Of a DNA stretch of 64,000 nucleotides, positions 15,722 to 64,000 are shown one piece after another. Origin of the DNA: a virus; IMG/VR virus record IMGVR_UViG_3300017917_000784, positions 21,170-85,169 of that record; one strand, written 5' to 3'. A model generated the notes under the pieces. It was not told the DNA's origin and searched no databases. It saw only the letters and a program-made list of their open reading frames with translations. The stretch's first letter is position 1. Each line of letters starts with the position of its first letter. The position numbers and the translations under genes were made by a program.

Positions 15722-16099
15722 ATGATTACAGATATAGAACGTGCAATGAACACAGGACGTGCTCCTTGGACTGAACTAGAGTATCAAACAGAATACTTTT
15801 GGGTGTTTTCAGACAAGTATCCAGTAACAGAAGGTCATATGCTGTTTGTTCCAGCAATGGAAAATAAAATCTGTATTATGAAATGCTACGAAGCCGCATA
15901 CGATGTAGGTGAAGATGGTGTGTTGAATCAGTTTTGGGATGGATTCAATGTAGGTCAAAATATTGGTGTTGCGGCTGGTCAAACTGTAATGTATCCACAC
16001 ATACACTTAATACCTAGACGTACAGGAGATATGTCTGACCCCAGGGGCGGGGTTAGACACGTAATACCGGAAAAAGGAAACTATAAGAAAAATGCTTAA
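15722..16099 (+). CDS. HIT family nucleotide hydrolase
   Basis: YPVTEGH, AAGQTVMYPHIHLIPR. Confidence 0.92.
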   Translation: MITDIERAMNTGRAPWTELEYQTEYFWVFSDKYPVTEGHMLFVPAMENKICIMKCYEAAYDVGEDGVLNQFWDGFNVGQNIGVAAGQTVMYPHIHLIPRRTGDMSDPRGGVRHVIPEKGNYKKNA

Positions 16100-17225
16100 C
16101 GAACTACAAGTCCATTGGGATAATAAAGTTGTTGATTATGATTTAGAAAAATATAATTGGCCTGCATGGGCACTGAGTGTTATACAAGAAGTTGCTCCTC
16201 AAGTAAAAGAACTTGAAACAATGCACGAGGTTCTAACACCAGCAGAAATTGTTAGGGTGGGTCAGCATGTACAAAATGCTTGCAGTCGCAGAGACTTTAT
16301 GGAAAGATTCGACGAGTTTGCGGCAGGTATTGTTCCACAACGTATTAACAATAAGCGTTATATGATTCAACGTCAAGGAACTTTACGTGTTGTTATTCCT
16401 AATCAAGCAAAGGTAGGACGTAGACTTGCGTTTCATCAAGGTATTTTTGTAGGTAATGGCAGAGGTTGCCGTACTATTTGGACTCCATTTACTCGTGCAG
16501 AAAAAACCAATACTATGTGGATGTTGGACCTAGACATCAGCAGAGAAATTACTAAACGTGTGCTCGCTGAAAAATGGAGTTTAGAAAAGTTTGAAGAAGA
16601 AAGTTTAAAACACGCATGGCCAGTTACGCTAAGTCCAGGTCAAAGTCATTTATTTTTCCAAGAGCATATTCATGGTAATGTAAACAACGATGAAGGATAT
16701 ACTCGTGTTAGTTTAGATATGCGTATCCTAATCGAAGGCGAAGAGTGGGGACGTAGACTTCCTGGTGGATTTATGCGTTTACCTGGTGACTACGAAGTTA
16801 CAGAAACTATGGATTATACTGGTAAAAGTTTTATCACGTATGCTGGGTGGAATAGTAAGTTTAGTAAAGACATTCCGTTACCTATGCAACGTGCAATTAT
16901 AGAGCCATATTGTCAAAAGAACAAGATTGCTTATACAAGTTATGAATTTGAAAACGAACATATGGATTGGCAGCCTGGTTTAGAGTATTACATTAAAGAA
17001 CGTCCGGACGGTATTGTTTTGTGCAGTATGTACAGTCTAACTGATGACATTCAACGTCGAAGTGAAATTTTAAATTTGGCTTTAGATTTAGGAGTTGAAT
17101 TACACTTTGCTAACGAACTTACCAGTCTTAAAACTAAAAAAGATTTAGAAAAAATTGAAACTTATCTAAATTTTGCAGTTCCTAAAAAGGGACTACAAGT
17201 ATGGGAAGAAGGTTGGCCGGGTTGA
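16092..17225 (+). CDS. Fusion of a StrG-like/sporadic carbohydrate cluster oxygenase domain and a LIC12192-like domain
   Basis: N-terminal LRV...FHQG...HGNVNN...TRVSLDMR; C-terminal PMQRAIIEPYC...DGIVLCSMYSL...LHFANE. Confidence 0.6.
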   Translation: MLNELQVHWDNKVVDYDLEKYNWPAWALSVIQEVAPQVKELETMHEVLTPAEIVRVGQHVQNACSRRDFMERFDEFAAGIVPQRINNKRYMIQRQGTLRVVIPNQAKVGRRLAFHQGIFVGNGRGCRTIWTPFTRAEKTNTMWMLDLDISREITKRVLAEKWSLEKFEEESLKHAWPVTLSPGQSHLFFQEHIHGNVNNDEGYTRVSLDMRILIEGEEWGRRLPGGFMRLPGDYEVTETMDYTGKSFITYAGWNSKFSKDIPLPMQRAIIEPYCQKNKIAYTSYEFENEHMDWQPGLEYYIKERPDGIVLCSMYSLTDDIQRRSEILNLALDLGVELHFANELTSLKTKKDLEKIETYLNFAVPKKGLQVWEEGWPG

Positions 17226-20987: not shown

Positions 20988-21418
20988 TGAAAAACATTAT
21001 TAAAAGAGTATTTGGCATTGATAAGTTAGAGCAAGCCAAACAAGAAGCCAAACAAGCGGCAGAAGAAGCACTAAAAATAGCAGAGGACGCTAAACGTGCG
21101 GCAGAAGAAGCATTGATGACTCCAAAAGAGCGTGCCACTGCTAGAGGTGAGCCCTATGTTGGTGTATTGGAAACTCACGTCAATAAAGAAAATCTACGTA
21201 ACGGTTTTTTTGAACTTGACTGGAACGACCAATTTGTGTTACAATTAAAGCAAGAAGGTTATGGTTTTGACGGCGATCCAGATGAAGAAATTGTGGATCG
21301 TTGGTTTAGAACTTTATGTCGAGACATAGCCGGCGAAGAGGGCATTGATATGACTGACCGTGGTGCTGGTTTTATTAATGTTAGAAAAATTGCTGAAGGT
21401 AAATCGGAAGTTTCATGA
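20987..21418 (+). CDS. Hypothetical protein
   Basis: TAATG overlap; coiled-coil N-terminus, GFFELDWND. Confidence 0.65.
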   Translation: MKNIIKRVFGIDKLEQAKQEAKQAAEEALKIAEDAKRAAEEALMTPKERATARGEPYVGVLETHVNKENLRNGFFELDWNDQFVLQLKQEGYGFDGDPDEEIVDRWFRTLCRDIAGEEGIDMTDRGAGFINVRKIAEGKSEVS

Positions 21419-29803: not shown

Positions 29804-30587
29804 TCGTACAGGCGTAGGTACAATATCTGTATTTGGTTATCAAATGCGTTTTGATTTACGTCAGGGTTTTCCTGCCGTTACTACTAAAAAACTTGCCTGG
29901 CGGGCAGTAGTATCTGAACTACTTTGGTTTTTAGAAGGCAGTGGAGACGAACGCAGACTTGCAGAAATTCTACACGGTACTAGAGATCCAGAAAAGAAAA
30001 CTATCTGGACCGCTAATGCAGAAGCAGAATATTGGAAACCAAATGCCGCGTTTGAAGGTGACTTAGGTCGGGTATATGGAGTGCAATGGAGACAATGGGG
30101 CCCACGACTTGGTAACTATATTGATCAAATTGAAAGATTAATAGAAGGTATTAAGCGTGATCCTTCCGGACGCAGACACATCTTGACAGCATGGAATCCT
30201 GGCGAGTTGGATCAGATGGCGCTACCGCCATGTCACGTATTAAGCCAATTTGATGTAACCGATGGATATCTAAGTTGTCAGATGTATCAGCGTAGTTGCG
30301 ATATGTTTTTAGGAGTACCTTTTAACATAGCCAGTTACAGTTTACTTACTCATATTATTGCTCGCGAGTGCGGACTTAAAGTAGGTGAATTTATATGGAC
30401 TGGCGGCGACTGTCACATATACAAAAATCATGTAGACGCTGTAAAAGAACAATTAAGCAGAGAAGAAAGAACCTTACCTACACTGTTTGTTACTGTAGAT
30501 AAAAAACTAGGTGAGTACACTGTAGAGGATTTTATTTTGGAAAACTACAATCCTCATCCAACAATTAAAGCGGAGATGGCAGTATGA
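29745..30587 (+). CDS. thyA: Thymidylate synthase
   Basis: DRTGVGT, ELLWF, MALPPCH, YQRSCD, PFNIASY, HIYKNH. Confidence 0.97.
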   Translation: MKQYHQALEHILQNGKHKTDRTGVGTISVFGYQMRFDLRQGFPAVTTKKLAWRAVVSELLWFLEGSGDERRLAEILHGTRDPEKKTIWTANAEAEYWKPNAAFEGDLGRVYGVQWRQWGPRLGNYIDQIERLIEGIKRDPSGRRHILTAWNPGELDQMALPPCHVLSQFDVTDGYLSCQMYQRSCDMFLGVPFNIASYSLLTHIIARECGLKVGEFIWTGGDCHIYKNHVDAVKEQLSREERTLPTLFVTVDKKLGEYTVEDFILENYNPHPTIKAEMAV

Positions 30588-31507
30588 AAATATTTTTAAC
30601 AGGTGCTAGTGGATTTATTGGTAGCCATTTACAGCCATTGCTGGAAAAAAACGGACATCAAGTATATTGTTTAAAACACGATTTACTCGACTACGATGCT
30701 GTTACAGCAGAAGTAGTGCGCGAACAACCAGATGTTATTGTACACTTAGGTGCTAGAACTGAAGTAGAAAAAAGTTTTTACGAACAGATTACATTCAGTC
30801 AAATTAATTATGTAGGCAGTGTTAACCTTATAGAGGCTGCCAGCAAAGTTAAAAATCTTAAAAACTTTGTATTTGCCAGTACCATGGAAGTCTATGGTTG
30901 GCAACCTATCAGCGACGAAATTAAGTACAATAGAGTTCCTAAAGAATTTATTGCTTTTGATGAAAACACAGAACCACATCCTAATGCGCCTTACGCTGTT
31001 GCCAAATATGGTGTAGAAAAATACTTAGAGTATATGCATCGTAGTTGTGACTTTCCGTTTACTGCTATACGTCAAACAAATAGTTATGGTCGCAAAGACA
31101 ACGATTTCTTTGTAACTGAGCAAATTATCAGTCAAATGATTAAGAATGATAAAGAAATAAATCTAGGGTATGCAGAACCTTATCGTAATTTTATCTATAT
31201 AGACGACTTGCTAGGTGCATGGATGACTTGTATTGAAAATCCTGAACTAGTTAACAGTGGTAAAATCTTTACTATTGGTCCCGATCGTCCAATTAAAATT
31301 TCAGACTATGCGGCTATGATTGGTAGCATGATGGAATGGCGTGGAGAAATACACTGGAATAAAAAGCCTATACGCCAAGGAGAAATTTATTGGCTGTGTA
31401 GCAATCACAATCTCATTACTAAACTCACTGGATGGGCTCCTAAAGTTAGTCTAGAAGAAGGTTTAGAAAAAACTATCCGTGTGTGGCGAGAAAAACTTAA
31501 AAAATGA
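30584..31507 (+). CDS. NAD-dependent NDP-sugar epimerase/dehydratase
   Basis: TGASGFIG, ASTMEVYG, YAVAK. Confidence 0.92.
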   Translation: MKIFLTGASGFIGSHLQPLLEKNGHQVYCLKHDLLDYDAVTAEVVREQPDVIVHLGARTEVEKSFYEQITFSQINYVGSVNLIEAASKVKNLKNFVFASTMEVYGWQPISDEIKYNRVPKEFIAFDENTEPHPNAPYAVAKYGVEKYLEYMHRSCDFPFTAIRQTNSYGRKDNDFFVTEQIISQMIKNDKEINLGYAEPYRNFIYIDDLLGAWMTCIENPELVNSGKIFTIGPDRPIKISDYAAMIGSMMEWRGEIHWNKKPIRQGEIYWLCSNHNLITKLTGWAPKVSLEEGLEKTIRVWREKLKK

Positions 31508-32016
31508 TTAGCGGTCGTATTACTCCTACATGGACTTACGAAACTTTAGAATCACTTGATATAAATCCACATCACGAAATATATCGAGGATTTGATCTTA
31601 TAGATGAACAGGATCGTAATCGATACCCATCGTCAGTTATGCACGATGTACATAGAGATTTACCTGCATTTCTCGACGAAGATATATTTGAAAAAGAGTT
31701 TGCTTGGCTAGCAGAAAAAAGTTATGCCCTACATCGTATGCAACCAGGTATGTTGCTGCCGTTACACAAAGATCGATACAGGTACTACAGTCAAAGTCGA
31801 AATCTTAAAACAACAGAAAATGTTGTACGAGTTATAATGTTTCTTAGTGATTGGAAGAACGGACACTATTTAGAAATAAACTATAGTCCTATAACAAACT
31901 GGCGAGCTGGAGATTGGGTAGCATGGAGAAACGATACTGCTCACCTTGCCGCTAACTTAGGGCATAAAAATCGATATACTTTACAAATTACAGGTATCGA
32001 TATTTCTAAGAGTTGA
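31504..32016 (+). CDS. 2OG-Fe(II) oxygenase-like protein (paralog of 17222..17728)
   Basis: LLPLHKD...HLAANLGHKNRYTLQITG. Confidence 0.72.
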   Translation: MISGRITPTWTYETLESLDINPHHEIYRGFDLIDEQDRNRYPSSVMHDVHRDLPAFLDEDIFEKEFAWLAEKSYALHRMQPGMLLPLHKDRYRYYSQSRNLKTTENVVRVIMFLSDWKNGHYLEINYSPITNWRAGDWVAWRNDTAHLAANLGHKNRYTLQITGIDISKS

Positions 32017-55229: not shown

Positions 55230-55816
55230 CTTATCGATTGATACCGTTCACTGAAAATTTAGATTTAACAGAGTTTTATGCCGAATGTGCTCGCAGAGGT
55301 TTTGAAAATAATGTCAGTCAAAAAACTATGTTTGACTGTTTTAAAAACGAACGAGAGTGGGCCGGCTGGTTATTAGAATACAACGGAGAAATTATTGGAG
55401 GAGTTTGTTGCCATAGTTTTGACGATGTTATGGGTCCAGGCAGTTATAGATTATTGGCAAGAACTGTATGCTTTACTGACCGAAGTCATAAACCTATGCA
55501 CAATGTTCGAGGTTTTGTGTTTAAACATCAGTGCGTGGCTAGTCAGTTTTATATGCCTGTGGCTATACAATGGGCAGGGCGAGATAAAAAATTTTACGGC
55601 ACTAGTAATGCTAACAGTGTAGGTACTAGTAGAATTAGCCATAACATTTGGTTTCCTAAACATGTAGAACAAGGAACTTTTTATAAAGCCAAGGAAGTAT
55701 TTTACAGAGGATGGAACCAAACAGTATGGGGATTAAACATTGATACGTATTTTGAACAACTTAAAAAATTCCCTAAATGGGAATGCGAATTTCCTAACGA
55801 CGACCCACGACCATAA
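55226..55816 (+). CDS. GNAT-like hypothetical protein
   Basis: WLLEYNGEIIGGV beta-hairpin, YRLLART; ATGA overlap. Confidence 0.45.
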   Translation: MTYRLIPFTENLDLTEFYAECARRGFENNVSQKTMFDCFKNEREWAGWLLEYNGEIIGGVCCHSFDDVMGPGSYRLLARTVCFTDRSHKPMHNVRGFVFKHQCVASQFYMPVAIQWAGRDKKFYGTSNANSVGTSRISHNIWFPKHVEQGTFYKAKEVFYRGWNQTVWGLNIDTYFEQLKKFPKWECEFPNDDPRP

Positions 55817-56384
55817 ATCGTGTGTATAAAGGCAGTTCTAGTTCTCCTGCCCATAATACATCCACATCACACTGAGATTTAAATTCATCTAAAGTTTTAG
55901 CAATTCTAACGTGCTCAGGAATATTATAATTGTTGCTCTGTAATACTAGAATACTATTTCTAGGATGACCGATTGACCAAGTATCGTATTGATCCTGTGT
56001 AATATGTTCACAACTGGTATTAATTATAATATCAGCGTCACTGCGAATAGTACACATATCTGCTGTAACTGCTCTAAACCTTCCTTGTTCAAGTTCTATT
56101 TGATTCATATCAGATGCAATTTTTTTGCAGGTTGGGTCTATGTCAATGCTACGAATGTGTTTGATTGGTAAACCAGATTGAAACAACATACTGGATAACA
56201 CTCCTACCCATCCGCCATGTATGTCTATAGACACTTCTTGATTAACAAACGGTTTAATATTATCTATTAACCATTCTTTACTAAGAATCTGCCCTCTCCA
56301 AAAAGCATCCAAGGTACGCATAGGATCTTTACTAGATCTGATAGCTCTCATCCAGTGATGTAGGTGTTCTGTATCTATTTGCAT
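55794..56384 (-). CDS. Class I SAM-dependent methyltransferase
   Basis: IHGGWVG, SIDID, ADM, INTSCEH. Confidence 0.8.
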   Translation of the reverse strand: MQIDTEHLHHWMRAIRSSKDPMRTLDAFWRGQILSKEWLIDNIKPFVNQEVSIDIHGGWVGVLSSMLFQSGLPIKHIRSIDIDPTCKKIASDMNQIELEQGRFRAVTADMCTIRSDADIIINTSCEHITQDQYDTWSIGHPRNSILVLQSNNYNIPEHVRIAKTLDEFKSQCDVDVLWAGELELPLYTRFMVVGRR

Positions 56385-57046
56385 TTTTTTAAAATCTTTT
56401 CTAAAAAACTTATTGGGTTAGGTTGAGGTATTGTAGACTCTACATTTATATATTTTAAAAAATCACGAGCAAATGCAGTGTGACCATCTATACCTGCATG
56501 GTCGCCATCTAATGCTTTTTTGTAATTTCTTTCGTAATTGCCCATGAATAAAGGTACATAAGGAATATTTTCAAAAAGTTCTTTATCTCTAGGTTCAGCA
56601 ATCATTTGATAAAACTCTATGCCTAGCCCTATTAAATGATTATAGGAATCTCTTATGTAAAGTTTTGTTGTTATATCTGCATCATAGTATGCATGCAGAT
56701 TTTCATAATAACTACGTGCCATTATTTCTACTTCTCGATGACTGTTTCCTACCTGGCTAGGTAATAAATTTGTTATGTTAAAGGGATTTTGTATAACCGC
56801 AGTTCTATCAGGATACGTCCATAATATCAATACTAAGTCATCGGGCCGGAATTTAAATTTAGATATAGTATACCAAATTCGTTTGTTACTAGACCCTGGT
56901 ACTGATTTGTTAATGCATTTTCTTCCAAGAGTTGATGCAACTAATTCTGGCCAACAATATTTGCTAGAATTTTTAGTATTCGGCCAACAATCTTCTAATC
57001 CTACACCGTAGGTCATAGAGTCTCCGAATGCTATTAATCTTTTCAT
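56375..57046 (-). CDS. SGNH/GDSL hydrolase-like protein
   Basis: FGDSMTYG, PGSSN, DGDH...GH. Confidence 0.8.
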   Translation of the reverse strand: MKRLIAFGDSMTYGVGLEDCWPNTKNSSKYCWPELVASTLGRKCINKSVPGSSNKRIWYTISKFKFRPDDLVLILWTYPDRTAVIQNPFNITNLLPSQVGNSHREVEIMARSYYENLHAYYDADITTKLYIRDSYNHLIGLGIEFYQMIAEPRDKELFENIPYVPLFMGNYERNYKKALDGDHAGIDGHTAFARDFLKYINVESTIPQPNPISFLEKILKKCK

Positions 57047-58041
57047 TTTACTTTTGGTATTTTACTGTCTGCTGAACTAACACATGTTGGAGTTATACAT
57101 TTTTTAGGACTATCAAATAATTTAAATCCACTTATCAAAGTACCCAATGGTTCGTCATGACAACTATAACTACGTTTAACTTCGTTACCTCTTATTATAA
57201 CACTCTGATATCCAGCATTACAAGACCAATTTTGAAACTTATTAAAACCAAATGCGTTAAATCTTTCGGCTTGATCAAACAAATATTCGTGGCCTAACTC
57301 GTCAAATAACGCTATTTGATACAACTGTTCACCTCTTGATAATTGAGGAAATCCTGTTTGCATTGCTTCTATCATTTTATCATCATAACCACTAACTACA
57401 AAACTAGCAGTGGAGTCACTTTGAGGTTTTAATGTTACATTTATACCTCGCTTATAAAGTCGTTCGCAACGTTCATATGTTTCCCAAAATAATTCTGGCA
57501 CCATGACTTGATTTACTGTTACATGAACACCTTCATAATTTAACTGTAAACACTTATCTCCAAATTCTTGTTCACGTGCAAATTCTGCATGAAAACTGGC
57601 TGTTATACTTCTGCGTTGTAACATTTCAGTATTTTTACACCAAGTGTTCCACCACTTACTTCCTGGACTTAGATTAGTTGTCATGTGAATACTTTGATAA
57701 GGAGAGGCTACCCCGTCATCTAAATGTTTAACTAAATCTAGTAATCGTTTATATGCTGTAGGTTCTCCGCCACTAAAACTCCAATGGAAGTCTGTAAATC
57801 CTCGTTCACGTGCTTGACGTTTTATTTCGTCAACAGTATTTGTATAAATTTCATAATCTAGATGATCTAATTTGTCACTTCTAGCATAAGGCCAGCAGTA
57901 ACTACAATTATAATTACAAAAACGACCTAATATCCAACTGACGTTGAACAACGGTCGATCAAGCATGGTGCGTTGACCAAATTTAACTATTCGGTGGAAC
58001 GGGATATCTCGAAAAGAATTGTCGTAACCATTCAAAGTCAT
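57043..58041 (-). CDS. Radical SAM/SPASM protein
   Basis: CNYNCSYC, SGGEPT, TTN; CNAG...SC...C...C. Confidence 0.9.
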   Translation of the reverse strand: MTLNGYDNSFRDIPFHRIVKFGQRTMLDRPLFNVSWILGRFCNYNCSYCWPYARSDKLDHLDYEIYTNTVDEIKRQARERGFTDFHWSFSGGEPTAYKRLLDLVKHLDDGVASPYQSIHMTTNLSPGSKWWNTWCKNTEMLQRRSITASFHAEFAREQEFGDKCLQLNYEGVHVTVNQVMVPELFWETYERCERLYKRGINVTLKPQSDSTASFVVSGYDDKMIEAMQTGFPQLSRGEQLYQIALFDELGHEYLFDQAERFNAFGFNKFQNWSCNAGYQSVIIRGNEVKRSYSCHDEPLGTLISGFKLFDSPKKCITPTCVSSADSKIPKVK

Positions 58042-58678
58042 TTATTTTACCTAGTGCTTCTAAATCTCCAGCCTTGTGCATGCCATACATTTTGCCATCT
58101 TCTGCACCAAGGTATGCCCAATTGCCGTGGGGTCTGTCTACGTGTGGGGTACACCACTCCATTAATCTGTGTTCAGTTTCAACATCAACCTGTCCGTCTA
58201 TAACTTTACTGGCTAACTTAACACACTCACGAAAGGCACTCTTCCAAGTGTTAAACGGATCTGTATTAAAAGCAGTAATGTTACTAACTTCAGACATTGC
58301 TTTAAATTTTGTACTGATGCTAGTAGTCATATCTGGCTTAGAAGTATCCATATCCAGCGTTAACTTACGCGGTAATAGTTTTACTCCACCGTATCCGTAC
58401 TCTAAATCGTTTATAGGATTGCGACTGCGCCATACATGGACTACATCTAAGTCCCATTCGCTAACTTCGTAGTCAAAATTAAATGTAGGTAATACCTCTG
58501 CATCGCCATCCACTACCCAAAACATTTTAGTAAAGGCTTTTTTAGCCGCGGCAATATGTGCTTGATGAATTCCTGCCACATTGGTAACACGTTTAGCCAA
58601 GGGGTATCGATTTTTTAATCGTTCCCAATTGGCTTCTGCATTGGGCTCACCGTAACTGATAAACACTATGTCGTACAT
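57983..58678 (-). CDS. GT-A-like glycosyltransferase domain protein
   Basis: YDIVFISY, FWVVDGD (DxD), YGYGGVKL, AFRECVKL. Confidence 0.6.
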   Translation of the reverse strand: MYDIVFISYGEPNAEANWERLKNRYPLAKRVTNVAGIHQAHIAAAKKAFTKMFWVVDGDAEVLPTFNFDYEVSEWDLDVVHVWRSRNPINDLEYGYGGVKLLPRKLTLDMDTSKPDMTTSISTKFKAMSEVSNITAFNTDPFNTWKSAFRECVKLASKVIDGQVDVETEHRLMEWCTPHVDRPHGNWAYLGAEDGKMYGMHKAGDLEALGKINDFEWLRQFFSRYPVPPNS

Positions 58679-59352
58679 TAGTGCCACTCCACTTCAGGAA
58701 ACATTGTTATAGTTTTGTATTCAGTATTACTGGTATCGGACGAGATACGATAGATCATATCTGAAAGATGGTGTGGATCTAAAGCGTTAGTAACATCACC
58801 GCAAGGATATGGATTATTTTCATTCCATAAGGTTGTGTTAATACCGCCTGGATGTATACTAGATACTTTTATACCCTTCTGTTTAAGTTCTTGGCCTAAC
58901 ACTCCGGCAAAACTTTTTAAAGCGGCCTTGCTGGCACAGTAAATGCTTTGATGTTGAATTTCTCTTAGTCCTGCTACACTATTAACAAAAACAATTTTTG
59001 AGCCTGACTCCATTATTGTTAACGCTTGATTAGTCACATACATTGTGCCTTTTACATTAGTATCAATAACATTAGCAATATCAAAATATTTTGAATCTGC
59101 AAAGTCGCCTATATGAAAAGCAGCCGTATTGTTTATTAACACATCAATTTTAGTTTTAGTTTTTTTAAGTAGATCAAATGCAGTATGAACTTGACCAATG
59201 TTAGCCACATCAGCAACTATGTGTGTATAGTTGTCATAACTCTTTAAATCTGTTCTACTAAATCCAATAACTTTCCATCCATTTTGTAAAAATGTTTCTG
59301 TTAGTGCTTTTCCTAATCCTCGACTGGATCCTGTAATTAATACTGTTTTCAT
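58678..59352 (-). CDS. Short-chain dehydrogenase/reductase
   Basis: TGSSRGLG, LINN, NS, YCASK, HPGGINT. Confidence 0.93.
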   Translation of the reverse strand: MKTVLITGSSRGLGKALTETFLQNGWKVIGFSRTDLKSYDNYTHIVADVANIGQVHTAFDLLKKTKTKIDVLINNTAAFHIGDFADSKYFDIANVIDTNVKGTMYVTNQALTIMESGSKIVFVNSVAGLREIQHQSIYCASKAALKSFAGVLGQELKQKGIKVSSIHPGGINTTLWNENNPYPCGDVTNALDPHHLSDMIYRISSDTSNTEYKTITMFPEVEWH

Positions 59353-60410
59353 TGCATATTTCTCATTCGTTCGCAGGCCTGTTCTATTTCACTGCGTGTT
59401 ACGTCATTAATAATTTCACAACGGCCAATACTTGTAGGAACAGGTATATATTGATTACCATTGCGATGGTTCATTACATCTTGTAGACCTGCCCATAGCA
59501 AGTCAACATTATAAAAATCGTTGTGTTCTGTAGGCAAGTCACAACTGCGAACAGTTTTAAAAATACGTTGTAAATGATCGTTACTGATATAACCTCTTAA
59601 ATTACTAATACAAGCACTTAAAAGACAATCGAGTATTACTGCTTCTCCGTGCAATAAGTTAGGAACATTTTTCATTTCAACCATAGGACTAAAAGTATGT
59701 CCAAAATCCACAGGACGCTGTAAGTCACGTTCCCAGAGATTATCATTTAGTTCTTCAGTCATGCCTGAAATTGCACGATCAATTATTTTATCTGCTAATA
59801 CGTGATTTTGGAATTTAAGTCGAAGTAGTTCTTGCGGATTAAGTTCAATTAATTCAAATAATTGATAATCAAGAACTATGGCCAATTTTAAAATTTCTGC
59901 CATACCGTTGGAAATTTCTCTATGATCCTGCGTTTTAATAAAAGACTTATCAATTAATGTTAATGTTGGAGGATAAAAACTACCAATTCTATTTCTAAAT
60001 CCAAAATGATTAATACTTGTTTTAGCACCCACACTAGCATCGACAATGGCTAATAAAGTGGTTGGTATTCTTACATAAGGCACACCCCTACGATATATGC
60101 TACAACAAAAGCCCACTAAGTCTAACAGAACTCCACCGCCTACAGCAATAACTGTTTCTCTACGCAGTAATTTTATGTCCTGAAAAAACTTTAAAACACG
60201 TTCGGCGTTTTTCCAATCTTTTTCAGATTCTGTGCTACGCACTGTAAAAATTTCTGTACCAGCAGGAATTTTATCTTTATACAACGCATACACAGTTTCG
60301 TCAATGACTGCTATTCTACGTTGACCAGGAATAACGTCCCAATCTAATGCATTGGATACTTTAACTATATCAAACTCTACAGGAAGAGTAGTTTTTACAC
60401 GCCATGTCAT
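59349..60410 (-). CDS. Sedoheptulose 7-phosphate cyclase (2-epi-5-epi-valiolone synthase-like)
   Basis: GGGVLLD, YRRG, PTTLLAIVDAS, EELNDNLWE..LQRPVDFGHTFSP, LLHGEAV. Confidence 0.87.
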   Translation of the reverse strand: MTWRVKTTLPVEFDIVKVSNALDWDVIPGQRRIAVIDETVYALYKDKIPAGTEIFTVRSTESEKDWKNAERVLKFFQDIKLLRRETVIAVGGGVLLDLVGFCCSIYRRGVPYVRIPTTLLAIVDASVGAKTSINHFGFRNRIGSFYPPTLTLIDKSFIKTQDHREISNGMAEILKLAIVLDYQLFELIELNPQELLRLKFQNHVLADKIIDRAISGMTEELNDNLWERDLQRPVDFGHTFSPMVEMKNVPNLLHGEAVILDCLLSACISNLRGYISNDHLQRIFKTVRSCDLPTEHNDFYNVDLLWAGLQDVMNHRNGNQYIPVPTSIGRCEIINDVTRSEIEQACERMRNMQ

Positions 60411-61366
60411 AATAGTTTATTTACGAGAGCGCAAGCATGAGCATAAAAAAACTTTGCCGCTTCTATGTTTCCAGCGTGACATTTAAACGGCAACATACGA
60501 AAAAACTGTGTGGCTTCGAATAATCTTATTAGCAAATATTCTTGGCTAGTGTATCTGCGCTCTAATTCCTCGTTAAATAGTTTATCAAAATACAATAGAT
60601 TTTTTGGAAACTTAGTGTCGAATCCTGTAACATTTCCGTTTACACGTATCACACTGTCATTAAGAATACCGTAGTAACTGCTACTACACTGTAATATCTG
60701 ACTGTAATCCATAAATTTACTGTCTACTATACCTTCCTCGTATAAGTCAATAAACACTATACCAGTGTCTTCACTATAGAGAATATTTTCTAATGTAGGG
60801 TTTCCGTGTACGTAACTTTCTGTAGTTATAACCTGATCAAACAACTTAGATACTTGATCTAATTTATGTTTAATTCCACTAAATGTTTCTCCCCAGTGTA
60901 CGTAAACATCCATTTGATAAAAATTTTCAAACTCAGAAAATTGTCTAGCATCATTAATTTTTTGTAAAACTTCTTCTTGAAAATAAAGTTTTAAACTGCT
61001 GATGTTTGGCTGATAAGTGTGTTGATGTAAAGTGTCAAATGCCTGCCACAACTGTTGATGCATTCTTTCAGTCTGTTGGACGTCTAGTAAATTTTCTTTA
61101 AACAGTGTTTTAATATCTTTAGCATCAATATATTCAATGTCAAAATATGCGCCTTTATCGCACACACCAGCATCTAATACTCTCGGTACGTGCTGAGGAA
61201 TTATCTGATTAAATCTTTGTAATTTTTTTAGTTGGCTGTACCACCGTACATAGCCGTATTCTCTATCGGCAGTAGTTGAAATAGTTTTTCTTACAAATTT
61301 GCGATCACCGTCAACATATAAACAAGTTGAATTTAAACTACCGCCTTTTAGTTCAATTATATCCAT
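60407..61366 (-). CDS. APH/choline-kinase-like phosphotransferase
   Basis: KGGSL...FVRK, HGNPTLENIL, FID. Confidence 0.72.
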   Translation of the reverse strand: MDIIELKGGSLNSTCLYVDGDRKFVRKTISTTADREYGYVRWYSQLKKLQRFNQIIPQHVPRVLDAGVCDKGAYFDIEYIDAKDIKTLFKENLLDVQQTERMHQQLWQAFDTLHQHTYQPNISSLKLYFQEEVLQKINDARQFSEFENFYQMDVYVHWGETFSGIKHKLDQVSKLFDQVITTESYVHGNPTLENILYSEDTGIVFIDLYEEGIVDSKFMDYSQILQCSSSYYGILNDSVIRVNGNVTGFDTKFPKNLLYFDKLFNEELERRYTSQEYLLIRLFEATQFFRMLPFKCHAGNIEAAKFFYAHACALVNKLL

Positions 61367-61367
61367 A

Positions 61368-62600
61368 TTAAAAATCTAATACCCACTCAGGTAAGGAACC
61401 GCCTACATATCCCCATTTTTCTATTGCTGTCAAAAACTCTTTTCCAGGAGTTTTGTCAATGGCCTGACGCATGGCTAGTGCTCCGGCTAGAGTACCGTCT
61501 GGGTGTCCGTGTACAGCACCGCCGCAGTTAGCAAGAAAATCAGTGCCAAATTTGTCTGCTGTTGGGTTAACAATTCCCGGATGCATGCCGCAACTTAATG
61601 CTGGCAGTACATTTCTCTTATGTAAAGTTTCCATGGTGTATTTAAGTTCATCTTCGTTGTCACTTAAATAGCCTCCCCACATTCCTGCATGGATAGTATC
61701 GACTCCGCACAGGCCTGCAAGATCACATAGCACTGCCCAATCGATACCAAAAGGATTACGCTTGTCTGTAAGAATCTTATCACCGCTCTTTTGGTAATGT
61801 ATAAACAATGGAAGATCCAATCTGCGTATTGAATTATAAACTCCTAATCCACTCCAAAAATTAATGTGGATACCATTACCACCATTGTTGGCTACGAACT
61901 TAGCACGGTCAAGAATAGTATGATGATCGCCGTTAATACAGAAGCAATAGATAACTCCACGTCCGCAGTTATTAACAATATTTGAAATTAATTCAACACG
62001 ATCCTCGAGACGACAAAATGCTGGGTTACTAAGAATCTCATCTTCTTTAATAAAATCGACACCGCCATCTAATAGTTCTTTAACCATGTCGGCCAGCGTA
62101 CTAGGACTAATACCAGTTTTAGGTTTTACAATGGCTCCGGACAGCGGTTTGTCATAACGATTAACAAATTTTCTAATACCGGTAATGCCCCTGCGAGGTC
62201 CTAAAAATTGTTGTTCAACATCTTTAGGAAATTCAACGTGTTTTAATCTACACGATTTGAATACATTGATATCCATCTGACCGCCCATTAATTGGCACAT
62301 AAGGTGACTAATACCGTCGCCTTGCCAGTCAGAATTTATTTTAGGAAAACCAATCTTAACTGTACCACTATGCTTGCCTGTTAATTCTGATTCATTGTGA
62401 TAAATCACACAGGATGACATTTCAAACAATTCATCAGTTTCCCACTGATTTCGTATTTTTGGATTTCCAACACTTTGACCTATAGCAAGATTCCAAGCGG
62501 CATCGCGTAAATCTCCTATGTCAGAATACGTTTCAATATAATATGTTGCAATAACACAACGATCTTTTTCTGTTTGAGTTAGTTCTCGAAAAAATTTCAT
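61368..62600 (-). CDS. RuBisCO-like protein (form IV)
   Basis: GP..GI.GIR, IVKPK, GGVDFIKEDE, TIHAG, SCG, GGAVHGHP; SD AAAGGA before ATG 62600. Confidence 0.93.
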   Translation of the reverse strand: MKFFRELTQTEKDRCVIATYYIETYSDIGDLRDAAWNLAIGQSVGNPKIRNQWETDELFEMSSCVIYHNESELTGKHSGTVKIGFPKINSDWQGDGISHLMCQLMGGQMDINVFKSCRLKHVEFPKDVEQQFLGPRRGITGIRKFVNRYDKPLSGAIVKPKTGISPSTLADMVKELLDGGVDFIKEDEILSNPAFCRLEDRVELISNIVNNCGRGVIYCFCINGDHHTILDRAKFVANNGGNGIHINFWSGLGVYNSIRRLDLPLFIHYQKSGDKILTDKRNPFGIDWAVLCDLAGLCGVDTIHAGMWGGYLSDNEDELKYTMETLHKRNVLPALSCGMHPGIVNPTADKFGTDFLANCGGAVHGHPDGTLAGALAMRQAIDKTPGKEFLTAIEKWGYVGGSLPEWVLDF

Positions 62601-62631
62601 ACTTTTCCTTTCCGTTATTGTAAAGTATTTT

Positions 62632-62967
62632 TTATTTTTTGTCAACTATTTGGACTTCAAACTTATCATTAGGGTCGCTTAGATTCCGTACTACGACTAA
62701 TTTAACATCTGTAAGATATTCGCATTGACTAATTTCGTAAGGCTCCAAAACAAAGATATCTCCTGTTTTAAAAATTTCTCCGTTTATTTTAATTTCGCCC
62801 TCTACTACTAGGTTAATCTCAGTGCCTTGTTTATGAAAATGATCTTGATGAAATTCACCTGCACTATGCTGATGAAACCCAACTTCAAAATTTTCTTTGA
62901 GTAGACTTGGTTCAAAGTTTCCTACAAACCAACCTTTAATAAAGTTATTAATGTGTGCTTTTTTCAT
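62632..62967 (-). CDS. Cupin domain protein
   Basis: GWFVGNFEP, HFHK..TEIN, GDIF.LEPYE. Confidence 0.82.
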   Translation of the reverse strand: MKKAHINNFIKGWFVGNFEPSLLKENFEVGFHQHSAGEFHQDHFHKQGTEINLVVEGEIKINGEIFKTGDIFVLEPYEISQCEYLTDVKLVVVRNLSDPNDKFEVQIVDKK

Positions 62968-63689
62968 TAATCAAACCTTGTGCTTAGTCTTTGAAATTCT
63001 GTTAAATCGTCTGGCGTTCCTACTGGCCAAAATTCTGTATTGCTTATAGGAAATTTTTTTACTGTTTTTCCTCTAGCAATGGAATAATTATAAACTGGCG
63101 CAACATAAAACTCTCCGTTTTCTTTGTGATTATCTTTAATCATCTGCTCGGCATCCTGAAAAAAGTCACGTGTATGTGACCAGTGATAATATCCTGTAGT
63201 AGCGTCGTTGCTAATAACTTTTTTCTCTCTTACTTCAACAACAACTCCGTTCTCTTCACGAACATAACTACATTTAGGACTGGTTTCGTTATAGGTTACA
63301 ATATAACTTATTTCAGGATTTCTCTGTATTTCATCACGAAACTGATAAGATTTCCAATCCATAAATTGATCCCCGTTTACACTAAGCATTGGAGCATCTA
63401 AATCTTTAATATAAGGTTTGGTGTATAATAAACTTTCGGCAGCACCCTGTGTGTTACCATCTATGGCTATAATTTCATCCCCTAACCCTAATAGCATTTT
63501 TTCTAAAAAATTAAACTGCACCAAGTGTTCTTTTCTTATTACAAAATGAATTCGCCCTTTAAGTCCTATAGTTTCTACGCTGTGATATATCATAGGTGCG
63601 CCATGATATGCAATAAGATATTTAGGTAATTCGTAACCTGCTTGTTTAAAACGACTTCCCTGGCCGCATAGACCTATTAATATATTCAT
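62967..63689 (-). CDS. Sugar-phosphate nucleotidyltransferase (NTP_transferase family)
   Basis: GQGSRF..AGYELPK, NGDQ, EKK.IS, GEFYVAPVYN, GTPDDL. Confidence 0.88.
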   Translation of the reverse strand: MNILIGLCGQGSRFKQAGYELPKYLIAYHGAPMIYHSVETIGLKGRIHFVIRKEHLVQFNFLEKMLLGLGDEIIAIDGNTQGAAESLLYTKPYIKDLDAPMLSVNGDQFMDWKSYQFRDEIQRNPEISYIVTYNETSPKCSYVREENGVVVEVREKKVISNDATTGYYHWSHTRDFFQDAEQMIKDNHKENGEFYVAPVYNYSIARGKTVKKFPISNTEFWPVGTPDDLTEFQRLSTRFD

Positions 63690-64000
63690 TGTATTTCCTT
63701 GGCTAAAACTTTGGCCCATATTTCGTGAGTTTCTTTAGTAGGGTGTCCATACTCGTGCCGGCTCCATTTATTATTATAAACTTCAGCACTCCACGTATTT
63801 TTCATATACATATTTTCTAATTCTATATTCCATTTTGATTTTGCGTAATCTTGCCATTGCTGAGGATGATTCCCAATAGCAACAAAATCAAAATATTTTA
63901 TTCCTAATCCTTGACACAACATTCTTAAATTCATCATATATAATGCTGTCAAATTTTCTCCGTAACTGTCTGAATATATTTCATAATATGCTTTATGATA
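63686..64000 (-). CDS. C-terminal part of an SGNH-like protein (5' end outside window)
   Basis: Frame open to 64000; GHPTKETHEIWA terminal motif. Confidence 0.55.
   Translation of the reverse strand, partial: YHKAYYEIYSDSYGENLTALYMMNLRMLCQGLGIKYFDFVAIGNHPQQWQDYAKSKWNIELENMYMKNTWSAEVYNNKWSRHEYGHPTKETHEIWAKVLAKEIQ

Follow-up and report, generated by a model that had tools for sequence, protein, structure and literature searches.

Nucleotide-activated C7 sugars are known from the nucleoside diphosphate (NDP)-heptose pathway, which uses the enzymes GmhA, HddA/HldE, GmhB and HddC, and methionine salvage brings together MtnK, a 5-methylthioribose (MTR) 1-kinase of the eukaryotic-like kinase (ELK) fold, MtnW, a RuBisCO-like protein (RLP) acting as an enolase, and MtnD, a cupin dioxygenase. 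Carbasugars activated with NDP are already known as well, in the form of guanosine diphosphate (GDP)-valienol. According to the portions consulted of Tsunoda et al. 2022 (PMC9200736), the GDP-valienol branch of acarbose and validamycin biosynthesis comprises 2-epi-5-epi-valiolone synthases (EEVS), namely AcbC/ValA, the kinases AcbM/ValC and AcbU, the phosphatase AcbJ, the nucleotidyltransferases (NTases) AcbR/VldB and the pseudoglycosyltransferases AcbS/VldE. About 80 divergent RLPs encoded on phage contigs, some of them in genomes larger than 200 kb, were described by Jaffe et al. 2018 (PMC6389311), and their function is left open in the text consulted. In this study, we analyzed a 64,000-nucleotide stretch of viral DNA (positions 21,170 to 85,169 of IMG/VR record IMGVR_UViG_3300017917_000784), referred to as the window, in which consecutive minus-strand genes encode an NTase, a cupin, an RLP, a kinase-like protein, an EEVS-type cyclase, a short-chain dehydrogenase/reductase (SDR) and a 234-aa protein, g7. 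A preliminary description had assigned all seven genes to a single pathway for an activated C7 cyclitol. Our comparisons suggest that two modules have been joined in one operon, and they favor, with modest confidence, an NDP-activated C7 cyclitol for a glycan as the most likely product.

The cyclase matched the Pfam families DHQ_synthase (PF01761, 5.2e-37) and DHQS_C (PF24621, 7e-23), and the NCBIfam aroB model scored it at 218.6 bits, against a cut-off of 305. Its best match in the PDB was ValA (4P53, 5.9e-77), followed by the desmethyl-4-deoxygadusol synthase (DDGS) 5TPR (2.5e-64) and by dehydroquinate synthases (DHQS) at 1e-42 or weaker. The motif NLWE..L.R.VDFGH, quoted earlier in favor of an EEVS-type enzyme that is neither AroB nor DDGS, is present in the cyclase: NLWERDLQRPVDFGH. 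In printed alignments the cyclase reads NLWE, VDFGH, FSP, HGEAV and HRNG, as does ValA 4P53; DDGS 5TPR reads NLHE, IAYGH, WSP, HGHAV and TRDG, and DHQS 6LK2 reads LNLGH. The GGG loop that binds NAD in the DHQS fold, the ligands of the metal (Glu, His, His) and the Lys/Asn/Arg positions involved in catalysis are all kept, and G91-G93, K130, N140, E172, H238 and H254 are also found in at least 155 of 158 homologues. The Asp of V-D-F-G-H and the His of H-R-x-G occupy what we take to be the published EEVS/DDGS fingerprint sites. The existence of such a fingerprint is confirmed by the consulted part of an eLife paper (PMC4426668). The PDB ranking and the motifs together ruled out both an AroB/shikimate reading and a DDGS reading of the cyclase, in agreement with the earlier assignment, and the protein is predicted to be EEVS-like, that is, an EEVS-type sedoheptulose 7-phosphate (S7P) cyclase.

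In a tree of 89 cyclases, those linked to the gene cassette considered below formed one clade (45 rows, support 98), which includes the cyclase of the window and in which 41 of the 45 rows have a kinase-like neighbor. The secondary-metabolite EEVS of actinomycetes and Burkholderia lie apart in a clade of 32 rows, none of which has a kinase-like neighbor. A second, small group of cassette-bearing cyclases, from Marinomonas, Bacteroidota and Verrucomicrobiota, is located elsewhere in the tree. Two metagenome-assembled genomes, labelled Caenarcanales and Gammaproteobacteria (loci L008 and L009), encode kinase-like, cyclase and SDR proteins that are 48-53% identical to those of the window.

The neighborhoods of cyclase genes were compared at the best 80 of 120 confirmed viral loci and at the best 80 of 237 cellular loci, which were searched with all proteins of the window. 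A kinase-like gene adjoins the cyclase gene at 78 of the 80 viral and 22 of the 80 cellular loci, an SDR gene does so at 80 and 19 loci, respectively, and an NTase gene lies within 4 kb on the same strand at 70 viral and 17 cellular loci. All four genes occur together at 70/80 viral and 12/80 cellular loci, and at 48 of the 49 viral loci that have at least 3 kb of sequence on both sides. The cellular cassettes have a fixed gene order, and their genes abut. Carriers belong to the Pseudomonadota, Myxococcota, Fibrobacterota, Balneolota, Cyanobacteriota, Actinomycetota and the archaea, and those with names include Polynucleobacter, Marinomonas, Desulfobulbaceae, Prochlorococcus, Actinomarina, Woesearchaeota and one further archaeon. 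Conservation of the gene set had been named beforehand as a test of the pathway, and the cassette of kinase-like, cyclase, SDR and NTase genes, hereafter module A, was found in many phages, bacteria and archaea.

The SDR (adh_short, 7e-40) is a short classical SDR and a putative ketocyclitol reductase. In all five cellular cassette loci that lack an SDR, an open reading frame (ORF) for an aldo/keto reductase (1e-45 to 1e-69) directly follows the cyclase gene. Because an unrelated reductase fills the SDR slot at these loci, reduction of the carbonyl of the cyclase product appears to be obligatory. Two of the five loci are in Prochlorococcus single-cell genomes, and in L019 the aldo/keto reductase is fused to a methyltransferase domain.

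The cellular cassettes lie inside surface-polysaccharide loci, and their context is glycan synthesis. In Polynucleobacter, where a cultured isolate (Polynucleobacter sp. 80A-SIGWE) carries the cassette, it is flanked by genes for ManC, a GT2 glycosyltransferase (GT) and a Wzz-like protein on one side and by genes for a GT9, a GDP-mannose 4,6-dehydratase and a DegT aminotransferase on the other. Among 140 flanking ORFs within 6 kb in 15 cellular loci, GT2 was the commonest Pfam family (11), followed by aldo/keto reductases (5), sugar dehydratases and epimerases (4 each), Wzx-type flippases, DegT, GT1, GT61, Wzz and GtrA. These flanks bear on the alternative that the activated cyclitol is put on phage DNA as a hypermodified base and not on a glycan. 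Glycosylation of DNA bases is known in phages; however, such a use is improbable in the present case, considering that the cellular cassettes lie in surface-polysaccharide loci, that the cyanophage relatives of the NTase stand among GTs and that no link of the cassette to DNA-modification genes was seen in the loci examined.

The NTase of the window matched PF00483 (1.7e-6; 28.3 bits, where the cut-off is 21.2; positions 8-240 of the 245 in the profile) and phrog_3980 (4.6e-52), its best PDB match was the NDP-sugar pyrophosphorylase 4EVW (7e-18), and it carries the N-terminal GxGxR loop as GQGSRF, by which it is assigned to the sugar-1-phosphate nucleotidyltransferases. In a tree of 64 NTases it fell into a clade of 40 rows (98% support) together with all 33 NTases of loci that have an RLP gene and no cyclase gene, and did not group with the NTases from the remaining cassettes, 14 viral and 10 cellular. 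This placement assigns the window's NTase to the lineage of a second unit, module B, which is described below. The same clade also holds the NTase of locus L125, where an NTase gene of the module B type immediately precedes those for the kinase-like protein, the cyclase and the SDR, RLP and cupin genes being absent, and a HAD-NTase fusion of the Balneolaceae cassette. Relatives that are about 38% identical occur in cultured cyanophages as HAD-NTase or NTase fusions among GTs. A transaldolase is also encoded in these cyanophage regions, and the one in S-SKS1 additionally has a gene annotated as phosphoheptose isomerase; this context fits an NTase lineage handling C7 sugar phosphates. Fusions of a HAD hydrolase with an NTase of this lineage are located at L016:13187-14557 (Balneolaceae) and at L240:5353-6738 (gp067 of Synechococcus phage S-CAM9); in these, the HAD domain may serve as a phosphatase or a mutase in the step preceding nucleotidyl transfer. 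The NTase of the window has no HAD domain.

The affiliation of the NTase with module B is also what would be expected if it served module B only and the cyclitol were never activated, ending up as a free small molecule, for example a sunscreen resembling gadusol or mycosporine, or an inhibitor of glycosidases or trehalases. EEVS enzymes do start the gadusol, kirkamide and validamycin pathways, according to the consulted parts of two papers (PMC12904256, PMC4426668). Nevertheless, the seven genes include no MT-Ox, no O-methyltransferase/ATP-grasp and no aminotransferase gene, an NTase gene accompanies the cyclase gene at 70 of the 80 viral loci, and L125 pairs the same NTase lineage with the cassette in the absence of RLP and cupin, all of which make a free small molecule a highly improbable product.

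The kinase-like protein matched the Pfam families APH (2.8e-7) and Fructosamin_kin (9.2e-7), and a search of the PDB with the single sequence gave no match. The nearest folds to its AlphaFold2 (AF2) model (pLDDT 94.9) were those of MTR kinase and of NahK (N-acetylhexosamine 1-kinase), followed by FN3K and APH enzymes, all identified by Foldseek at a probability of 1.0, and by choline kinases, including LicA. MTR kinase and NahK are presumably both anomeric sugar 1-kinases, and phosphorylation of a pseudo-anomeric hydroxyl would fit this protein because its nearest kinase folds are anomeric 1-kinases. The protein has the bilobal ELK fold, and its ATP- and Mg-binding residues, the beta-3 Lys (K27) together with the Asn and Asp of the Mg site (N194 and D207), are kept in 94 of 94 homologues. 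It is a putative cyclitol (pseudo-anomeric) kinase.

What has been described so far, from gene families and catalytic motifs to synteny and co-occurrence, is observed, and the four activities of module A give the simplest chemistry leading from S7P to an NDP-cyclitol. In the proposed pathway, the EEVS-type cyclase would convert S7P to a valiolone-type ketocyclitol, the SDR would reduce the carbonyl of this ketocyclitol to yield a saturated cyclitol, the kinase-fold protein would phosphorylate the pseudo-anomeric hydroxyl to yield a cyclitol 1-phosphate, and the NTase would convert the latter to an NDP-cyclitol, a carbocyclic mimic of NDP-heptose. The NDP-cyclitol would be used as a glycan building block, with g7 as a candidate transferase. 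Each of these chemical steps is inferred, as are the sequence in which reduction and phosphorylation would take place, the nucleotide and the acceptor, for which the preliminary description had named a virion, the host surface or DNA. The pathway in the preliminary description is partly supported: the EEVS-type cyclase, the reductase, the NTase and the kinase-fold protein form a conserved cassette, and the steps that it had given to the RLP and the cupin are not supported.

Like the acarbose and validamycin pathways, the proposed route starts from S7P and runs through an EEVS-type cyclase, reduction, C1 phosphorylation and nucleotidylation to an NDP-carbasugar. Unlike those pathways, it would take four genes instead of about ten and is found in a phage or in a polysaccharide locus instead of an antibiotic cluster; the cyclase of the window is of another lineage, and the window has no aminotransferase, no HAD phosphatase and no pseudoglycosyltransferase of the GT5/GT20 type, g7 being predicted as GT-A-like. 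Searches by tblastn (E ≤ 1e-5) with the kinase-like protein and the NTase of the window found neither within 10 kb of the EEVS genes of Streptomyces, Actinoplanes, Nocardia and leaf-nodule Burkholderia. The analogy with validamycin and acarbose that had been drawn earlier is confined to the logic; no homologous set of kinase, NTase and pseudoglycosyltransferase was found beside these EEVS genes.

The likeness to the NDP-heptose pathway consists of the S7P substrate, the passage of a C7 unit through a 1-phosphate to an NDP-sugar and the type of locus, together with the transaldolase and phosphoheptose isomerase genes in the cyanophage NTase regions and the heptosyltransferase-like GT9 neighbor in Polynucleobacter. 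The differences are that a cyclase takes the place of the isomerase, giving a carbocyclic ring, that the kinase is of the ELK fold and not GHMP- or ribokinase-like, and that a ketoreductase is required.

Several points weigh against the proposed pathway. The cyclase loci were chosen with a pattern containing VDFGH, so that the conservation of VDFGH across these loci is partly circular. The sequence does not separate EEVS from 2-epi-valiolone synthase (EVS) or from an enzyme of new stereochemistry. The "cellular" cyclases of L008 and L009 nest in the viral clade, and may represent mis-binned phage DNA or a recent transfer. The catalytic loop of the kinase-like protein reads HGNxTLEN, and the position of the catalytic Asp in the HxDxxxxN motif is occupied by Asn in 93 of 94 homologues and by Asp in one; the best PDB sequence matches of the family profile were to the HGN loop of the JAK2 JH2 pseudokinase (E 0.002), with which the catalytic loop aligns. 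The earlier label "kinase" is supported in that a protein with an ELK/APH-like fold travels with the cyclase, and it is weakened by the loss of the catalytic Asp. Because Asn replaces the ELK catalytic Asp, the kinase activity of this protein is an assumption, though its ATP/Mg-binding residues are kept.

Another outcome is suggested by the choline kinases, LicA included, that the kinase-like fold also matches. In a manner similar to LicA/LicC or TarJ/TarI, the cassette could make an NDP-cyclitol of the cytidine diphosphate (CDP)-alcohol type, from which a phosphotransferase would add a phospho-cyclitol, in phosphodiester linkage, to an acceptor that is a glycan, a teichoic-acid-like polymer or a lipid. 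The pairing of a reductase with an NTase is that of CDP-ribitol synthesis, and the gene for a protein of phosphodiesterase fold, resembling glycerophosphodiester phosphodiesterase (GDPD), that travels with the NTase lineage of the window hints at phosphodiester chemistry. Donor chemistry counts in favor of this transfer and against the proposed pathway: a saturated NDP-carbasugar makes a poor glycosyl donor, and the known pseudoglycosyltransferases require an amine nucleophile, the natural pseudo-oligosaccharides then known all being C-N linked, according to the consulted portions of Tsunoda et al. 2022 (PMC9200736). Formation of a C-O bond by ValL is reported in the title of a 2025 paper (PMC12041759). 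The genes themselves argue otherwise, as the NTase belongs to the sugar-1-phosphate type (RmlA/GlmU/4EVW-like), the neighborhoods are dominated by GTs, and no LicD, CDP-alcohol phosphatidyltransferase or TagF-like protein is found among the 25 commonest flank families. Transfer of a phospho-cyclitol is considered a serious, though unlikely, alternative.

If the NDP-cyclitol is instead transferred by a glycosyltransferase to a glycan, as we prefer, g7 is a candidate enzyme in the window. This protein has no match in Pfam, NCBIfam or PHROG, its PDB sequence search gave only chance-level matches, and its 5226 homologues, many of them 60-70% identical, are all unnamed. With its AF2 model (pLDDT 92.1), Foldseek retrieved the GT-A enzymes RmlT, WrtF, the PBCV-1 capsid GT, ppGalNAc-T and ArnC (probability about 1.0, E about 1e-4, TM 0.35-0.46), and the VIA aligner placed GT-A GTs level with nucleotidyltransferases of the IspD/MobA/IPCT type (Z 10-12, residues 1-140). 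The sequence D60-G-D62 follows the fourth strand (55-60), both Asp residues are invariant in 26 sequences, and inspection of the N-terminus found no Gly-rich GxGxR loop of NTases. A GT-A transferase is favored for g7 because of the invariant DxD and the missing Gly-rich loop, and the preliminary label "GT" is tentatively supported at the level of fold and DxD motif; from the model, g7 is predicted to be GT-A-like and is a candidate cyclitol transferase. A further point against its place in the pathway is that the g7 family extends well beyond the cassette and that searches of the loci from other cassette-bearing phage lineages did not detect it, for which reasons g7 does not appear to be a dedicated cyclitol transferase. 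A paralogue of g7, 32% identical, is encoded upstream in the related contig L001. Among cultured phages g7 matched only Ralstonia phage RsoM2USA (L239), whose homologue is 48% identical and is present in two copies, one at 216629-217330; all 27 neighboring genes are annotated "hypothetical". In distant cassette-bearing phages (L099-L101:13343-15898), a g7-like domain that is 28-31% identical lies inside a protein of 842-845 aa.

The RLP and the cupin belong to module B. The RLP matched RuBisCO_large (PF00016, 1.2e-43) and fell below the cut-off of every NCBIfam RuBisCO/RLP model, with 158 against 409 bits for MtnW and 150 against 700 for OiaX. Alignment with Pyrococcus RuBisCO 2CWX and with the canonical archaeal form III protein of locus L014 showed that it retains KPK, the Mg/carbamate site KxDE, the His in the DxxH stretch and the Ser/Gly residues that bind phosphate, and that its HxHRxxH stretch reads HyQKsgD, its loop-6 Lys is changed to Tyr and E..TW..N of the N-domain is Q/absent/Q. 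Judged by these residues, the RLP is form IV-like and not a carboxylase, and it probably binds a monophosphate. The cupin gave weak matches, below cut-off, to Cupin_7 and Cupin_2 and matched phrog_24762 (1e-31). Its H43, H45 and E50 are invariant in 30 homologues, and the family profile matched generic metal cupins, namely quercetinase (2.8e-6), Cupin_2 and KdgF.

A scan of IMG/VR with the RLP alignment confirmed at least 351 stretches, and 78 new loci were obtained among the best 80 examined. An NTase gene lies within 1.5 kb of the RLP gene on the same strand at 74 of these 78 viral loci, NTase and cupin genes both adjoin it at 57, and a gene for a GDPD-like protein of 140-200 aa is within 1.5 kb at 54. 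The cyclase is absent from 72 of the 78 loci, and the six that have it are contigs already in the cyclase set; among the 57 loci that have 4 kb or more of sequence on each side, it is absent from 53. Conversely, an RLP gene is found within 2.5 kb at 19 of the 80 viral cyclase loci, and at none of the other 61 viral or the 80 cellular ones. The genes for NTase, cupin, RLP and often the GDPD-like protein are thus a separate and widespread phage unit. Its neighbors include genes for WavE-like, GT11 and GT1-like proteins and an FkbM methyltransferase. Examples of module B are provided by L162-L238, such as L162:7694-10372, L197 and L226, and some of these have two short GDPD-like genes.

The GDPD-like family (phrog_34507; L001:2552-2998 and 94 homologues, L161-L238) has an HRG / EN / ExD / HD motif and about half the length of the GDPD barrel, and its profile matched the catalytic N-terminal GDPD motif of 7E0V (1.1e-5) and 3I10 (1.3e-5). 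In the atlas, the upstream 148-aa and 251-aa families occur only in unnamed viral clusters, and the named cluster nearest to the 148-aa family is GDPD (0.85).

In the preliminary description, the RLP and the cupin were isomerase or epimerase steps of the cyclitol pathway, so that all seven genes would lead to one product, for example through a 2-epimerase or isomerase of a phospho-ketocyclitol acting via an enediolate. Both genes do sit inside the cassette in the window, between the NTase and kinase-like genes, 19 of the 80 viral cyclase loci have the RLP nearby, RLPs enolise phospho-ketoses beside the phosphate-bearing carbon, and KxDE and KPK are kept in the RLP. A C2 epimerase is also needed at this stage in acarbose and validamycin biosynthesis, and the proposal makes chemical sense. 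However, the RLP and the cupin do not stand as cyclitol steps because module B occurs mostly without a cyclase, as at 72/78 RLP loci, which implies that the usual substrate of the family is something else, and because the cassette lacks an RLP at 61/80 viral and 80/80 cellular loci. In addition, two RLP types that are only 45-50% identical occupy the same slot in operons otherwise 75% related. Action of the RLP and the cupin on the cyclitol is regarded as quite unlikely. In the two-module arrangement that we favor, module B would probably feed a different phospho-sugar or polyol to the shared NTase, and in the clade of the window module B would have been spliced into module A, its NTase replacing the usual NTase of the cassette.

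The same three folds as in the methionine-salvage trio lie side by side here, and the best structural match found for the kinase-like protein is MTR kinase. The window differs from that trio in having no MtnA isomerase and no MtnX phosphatase, in an RLP that misses several residues of characterized RLPs, and in the NTase as the fixed partner. By description, the RLPs of module B are like those reported by Jaffe et al. (PMC6389311), which are divergent, form-IV-like proteins on IMG/VR phage contigs with key residues partly kept; the fixed context of NTase, cupin, RLP and GDPD-like genes among GTs is not in the consulted text of that paper.

The family-B DNA polymerase of the phage matched phrog_262 (1.5e-153), and its best matches were jumbo phages, namely Sinorhizobium phage Phosso (52%), Agrobacterium phage Atu_ph07 (49%) and the 121Q/Rak2 group (48%). 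The DNA is present in pond-metagenome runs of one study, with small shares in other freshwater runs, and no RNA data set was listed for this stretch. With these polymerase matches and pond runs, the window, which is the last 64 kb of a single contig of 85,169 bp, is part of the genome of an uncultured jumbo phage from fresh water. Two IMG/VR contigs of 86-89 kb encode a cyclase 97% identical to that of the window. The operon DNA had no match in 50,697 cultured-phage records, and the RLP had none in cultured phages; tblastn with the cyclase in cultured phages gave only aroB-like matches (25-32%), in short or bacterial-looking records.

The ORF list confirmed the seven abutting or overlapping minus-strand genes described before, which it places from 57983 to 63719, and Pfam matches were found for six of the seven, g7 being without one. 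The NTase and cupin genes overlap by 1 nt and the RLP and kinase-like genes are separated by 1 nt; the overlaps are 4 nt for kinase-like and cyclase genes, 4 nt for cyclase and SDR genes and 10 nt for SDR and g7 genes. The seven genes are as tightly packed as had been stated, but the array is wider than the operon first delimited: it contains at least 10 genes, extends downstream and past the contig end, and is cut by that end. The coordinates of its features are listed below.

Features of the gene array in the window, and aldo/keto reductase genes that follow the cyclase gene in cellular cassette loci
Feature	Coordinates	Strand	Remarks
DUF6071-family gene, 3' part	63686-64000	-	cut by contig end; array goes on upstream
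NTase	62967-63719	-	250 aa; 240 aa from ATG at 63689 (end given in the preliminary description), the form in relatives and the probable start
Cupin	62632-62967	-	111 aa
RLP	61368-62645	-	425 aa; likely start ATG 62600, as in relatives; M16 invariant
Kinase-like protein	60407-61366	-	319 aa
EEVS-type cyclase (predicted)	59349-60410	-	353 aa
SDR	58678-59352	-	224 aa
g7 ("GT")	57983-58687	-	234 aa
Radical SAM protein	57043-58041	-	PF04055, 5.8e-12; overlaps g7 by 59 nt; same array
SGNH/GDSL-like hydrolase	56375-57046	-	weak Lipase_GDSL matches, 2e-4; overlaps neighbors by 4 and 10 nt
196-aa protein, last gene of array	55794-56384	-	no match in Pfam/NCBIfam; 68-91% identical in near relatives
Terminator-like hairpin and T-run	55784-55768	-	directly 3' of last array gene
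Aldo/keto reductase	L012:11182-12234		
Aldo/keto reductase	L015:5424-6497		
Aldo/keto reductase	L019:11116-13362		
Aldo/keto reductase	L037:5496-6575		
Aldo/keto reductase	L044:5981-7060		

The radical SAM gene adjoins g7 throughout the near clade, with 71-94% identity. The ORF that is cut by the contig end shares 89% identity with the C-terminus (residues 125-228) of a DUF6071 protein of 228 aa (L001:6039-6725) that matches PF19547 (8.9e-8), and contig L001, which is 97% related, has eight more co-directional genes further upstream. Three genes after the operon in L001 (15544-18087), encoding an epimerase, a 374-aa and a 173-aa protein, have homologues elsewhere in the window, at 16092-17210, 30584-31498 and 31504-32007, that are 76%, 92% and 42% identical. 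As the three post-operon genes of L001 sit elsewhere in the window contig, the tailoring island is rearranged between close relatives. The evidence from the hairpin is weak, since a scan of 11 kb gave 10 terminator-like sites, where shuffled sequences gave 5.8 +/- 2.2, and promoter-like sites were not enriched in the region scanned (40 against 44.1 +/- 6.9 in shuffles). The best sigma-70-like match (TTGACA, 17 nt, TACAAT; 11/12) is on the minus strand at 62617-62645, between the cupin stop and the probable RLP ATG at 62600.

As stated in the preliminary description, no viral pathway of this kind was found in the literature searched, in which subscription journals were thinly covered. Within the same literature, no description was found of the four-gene form, of its setting in polysaccharide loci and phages or of its union with an RLP module. 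In a far-reaching extension, phages and many planktonic bacteria and archaea would make surface or virion glycans with a carbocyclic heptose analogue, obtained from S7P by a minimal route of four enzymes, and phage RLPs, together with the NTase, the cupin and the GDPD-like protein, would be nucleotide-sugar or nucleotide-polyol enzymes, here acting on or alongside a C7 cyclitol so that a further modified activated unit results; we hold this to be possible though rather unlikely.

C7 carbasugars are known as antibiotic warheads (acarbose, validamycin), as insecticidal or allelopathic products of symbionts and as sunscreen precursors. The four-gene route, if true, would make carbasugars a building block of glycans as well. 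Carbocycle links in such glycans should then withstand glycosidases and the depolymerases of phages, with possible consequences for receptor masking, superinfection exclusion or virion stability. For the phage RLPs, the fixed partners found here (NTase, metal cupin and GDPD-like protein, among GTs) restrict the search for a substrate to phospho-sugars or polyols that undergo activation with a nucleotide, and the cultured Polynucleobacter carrier makes the chemistry of the cassette testable.

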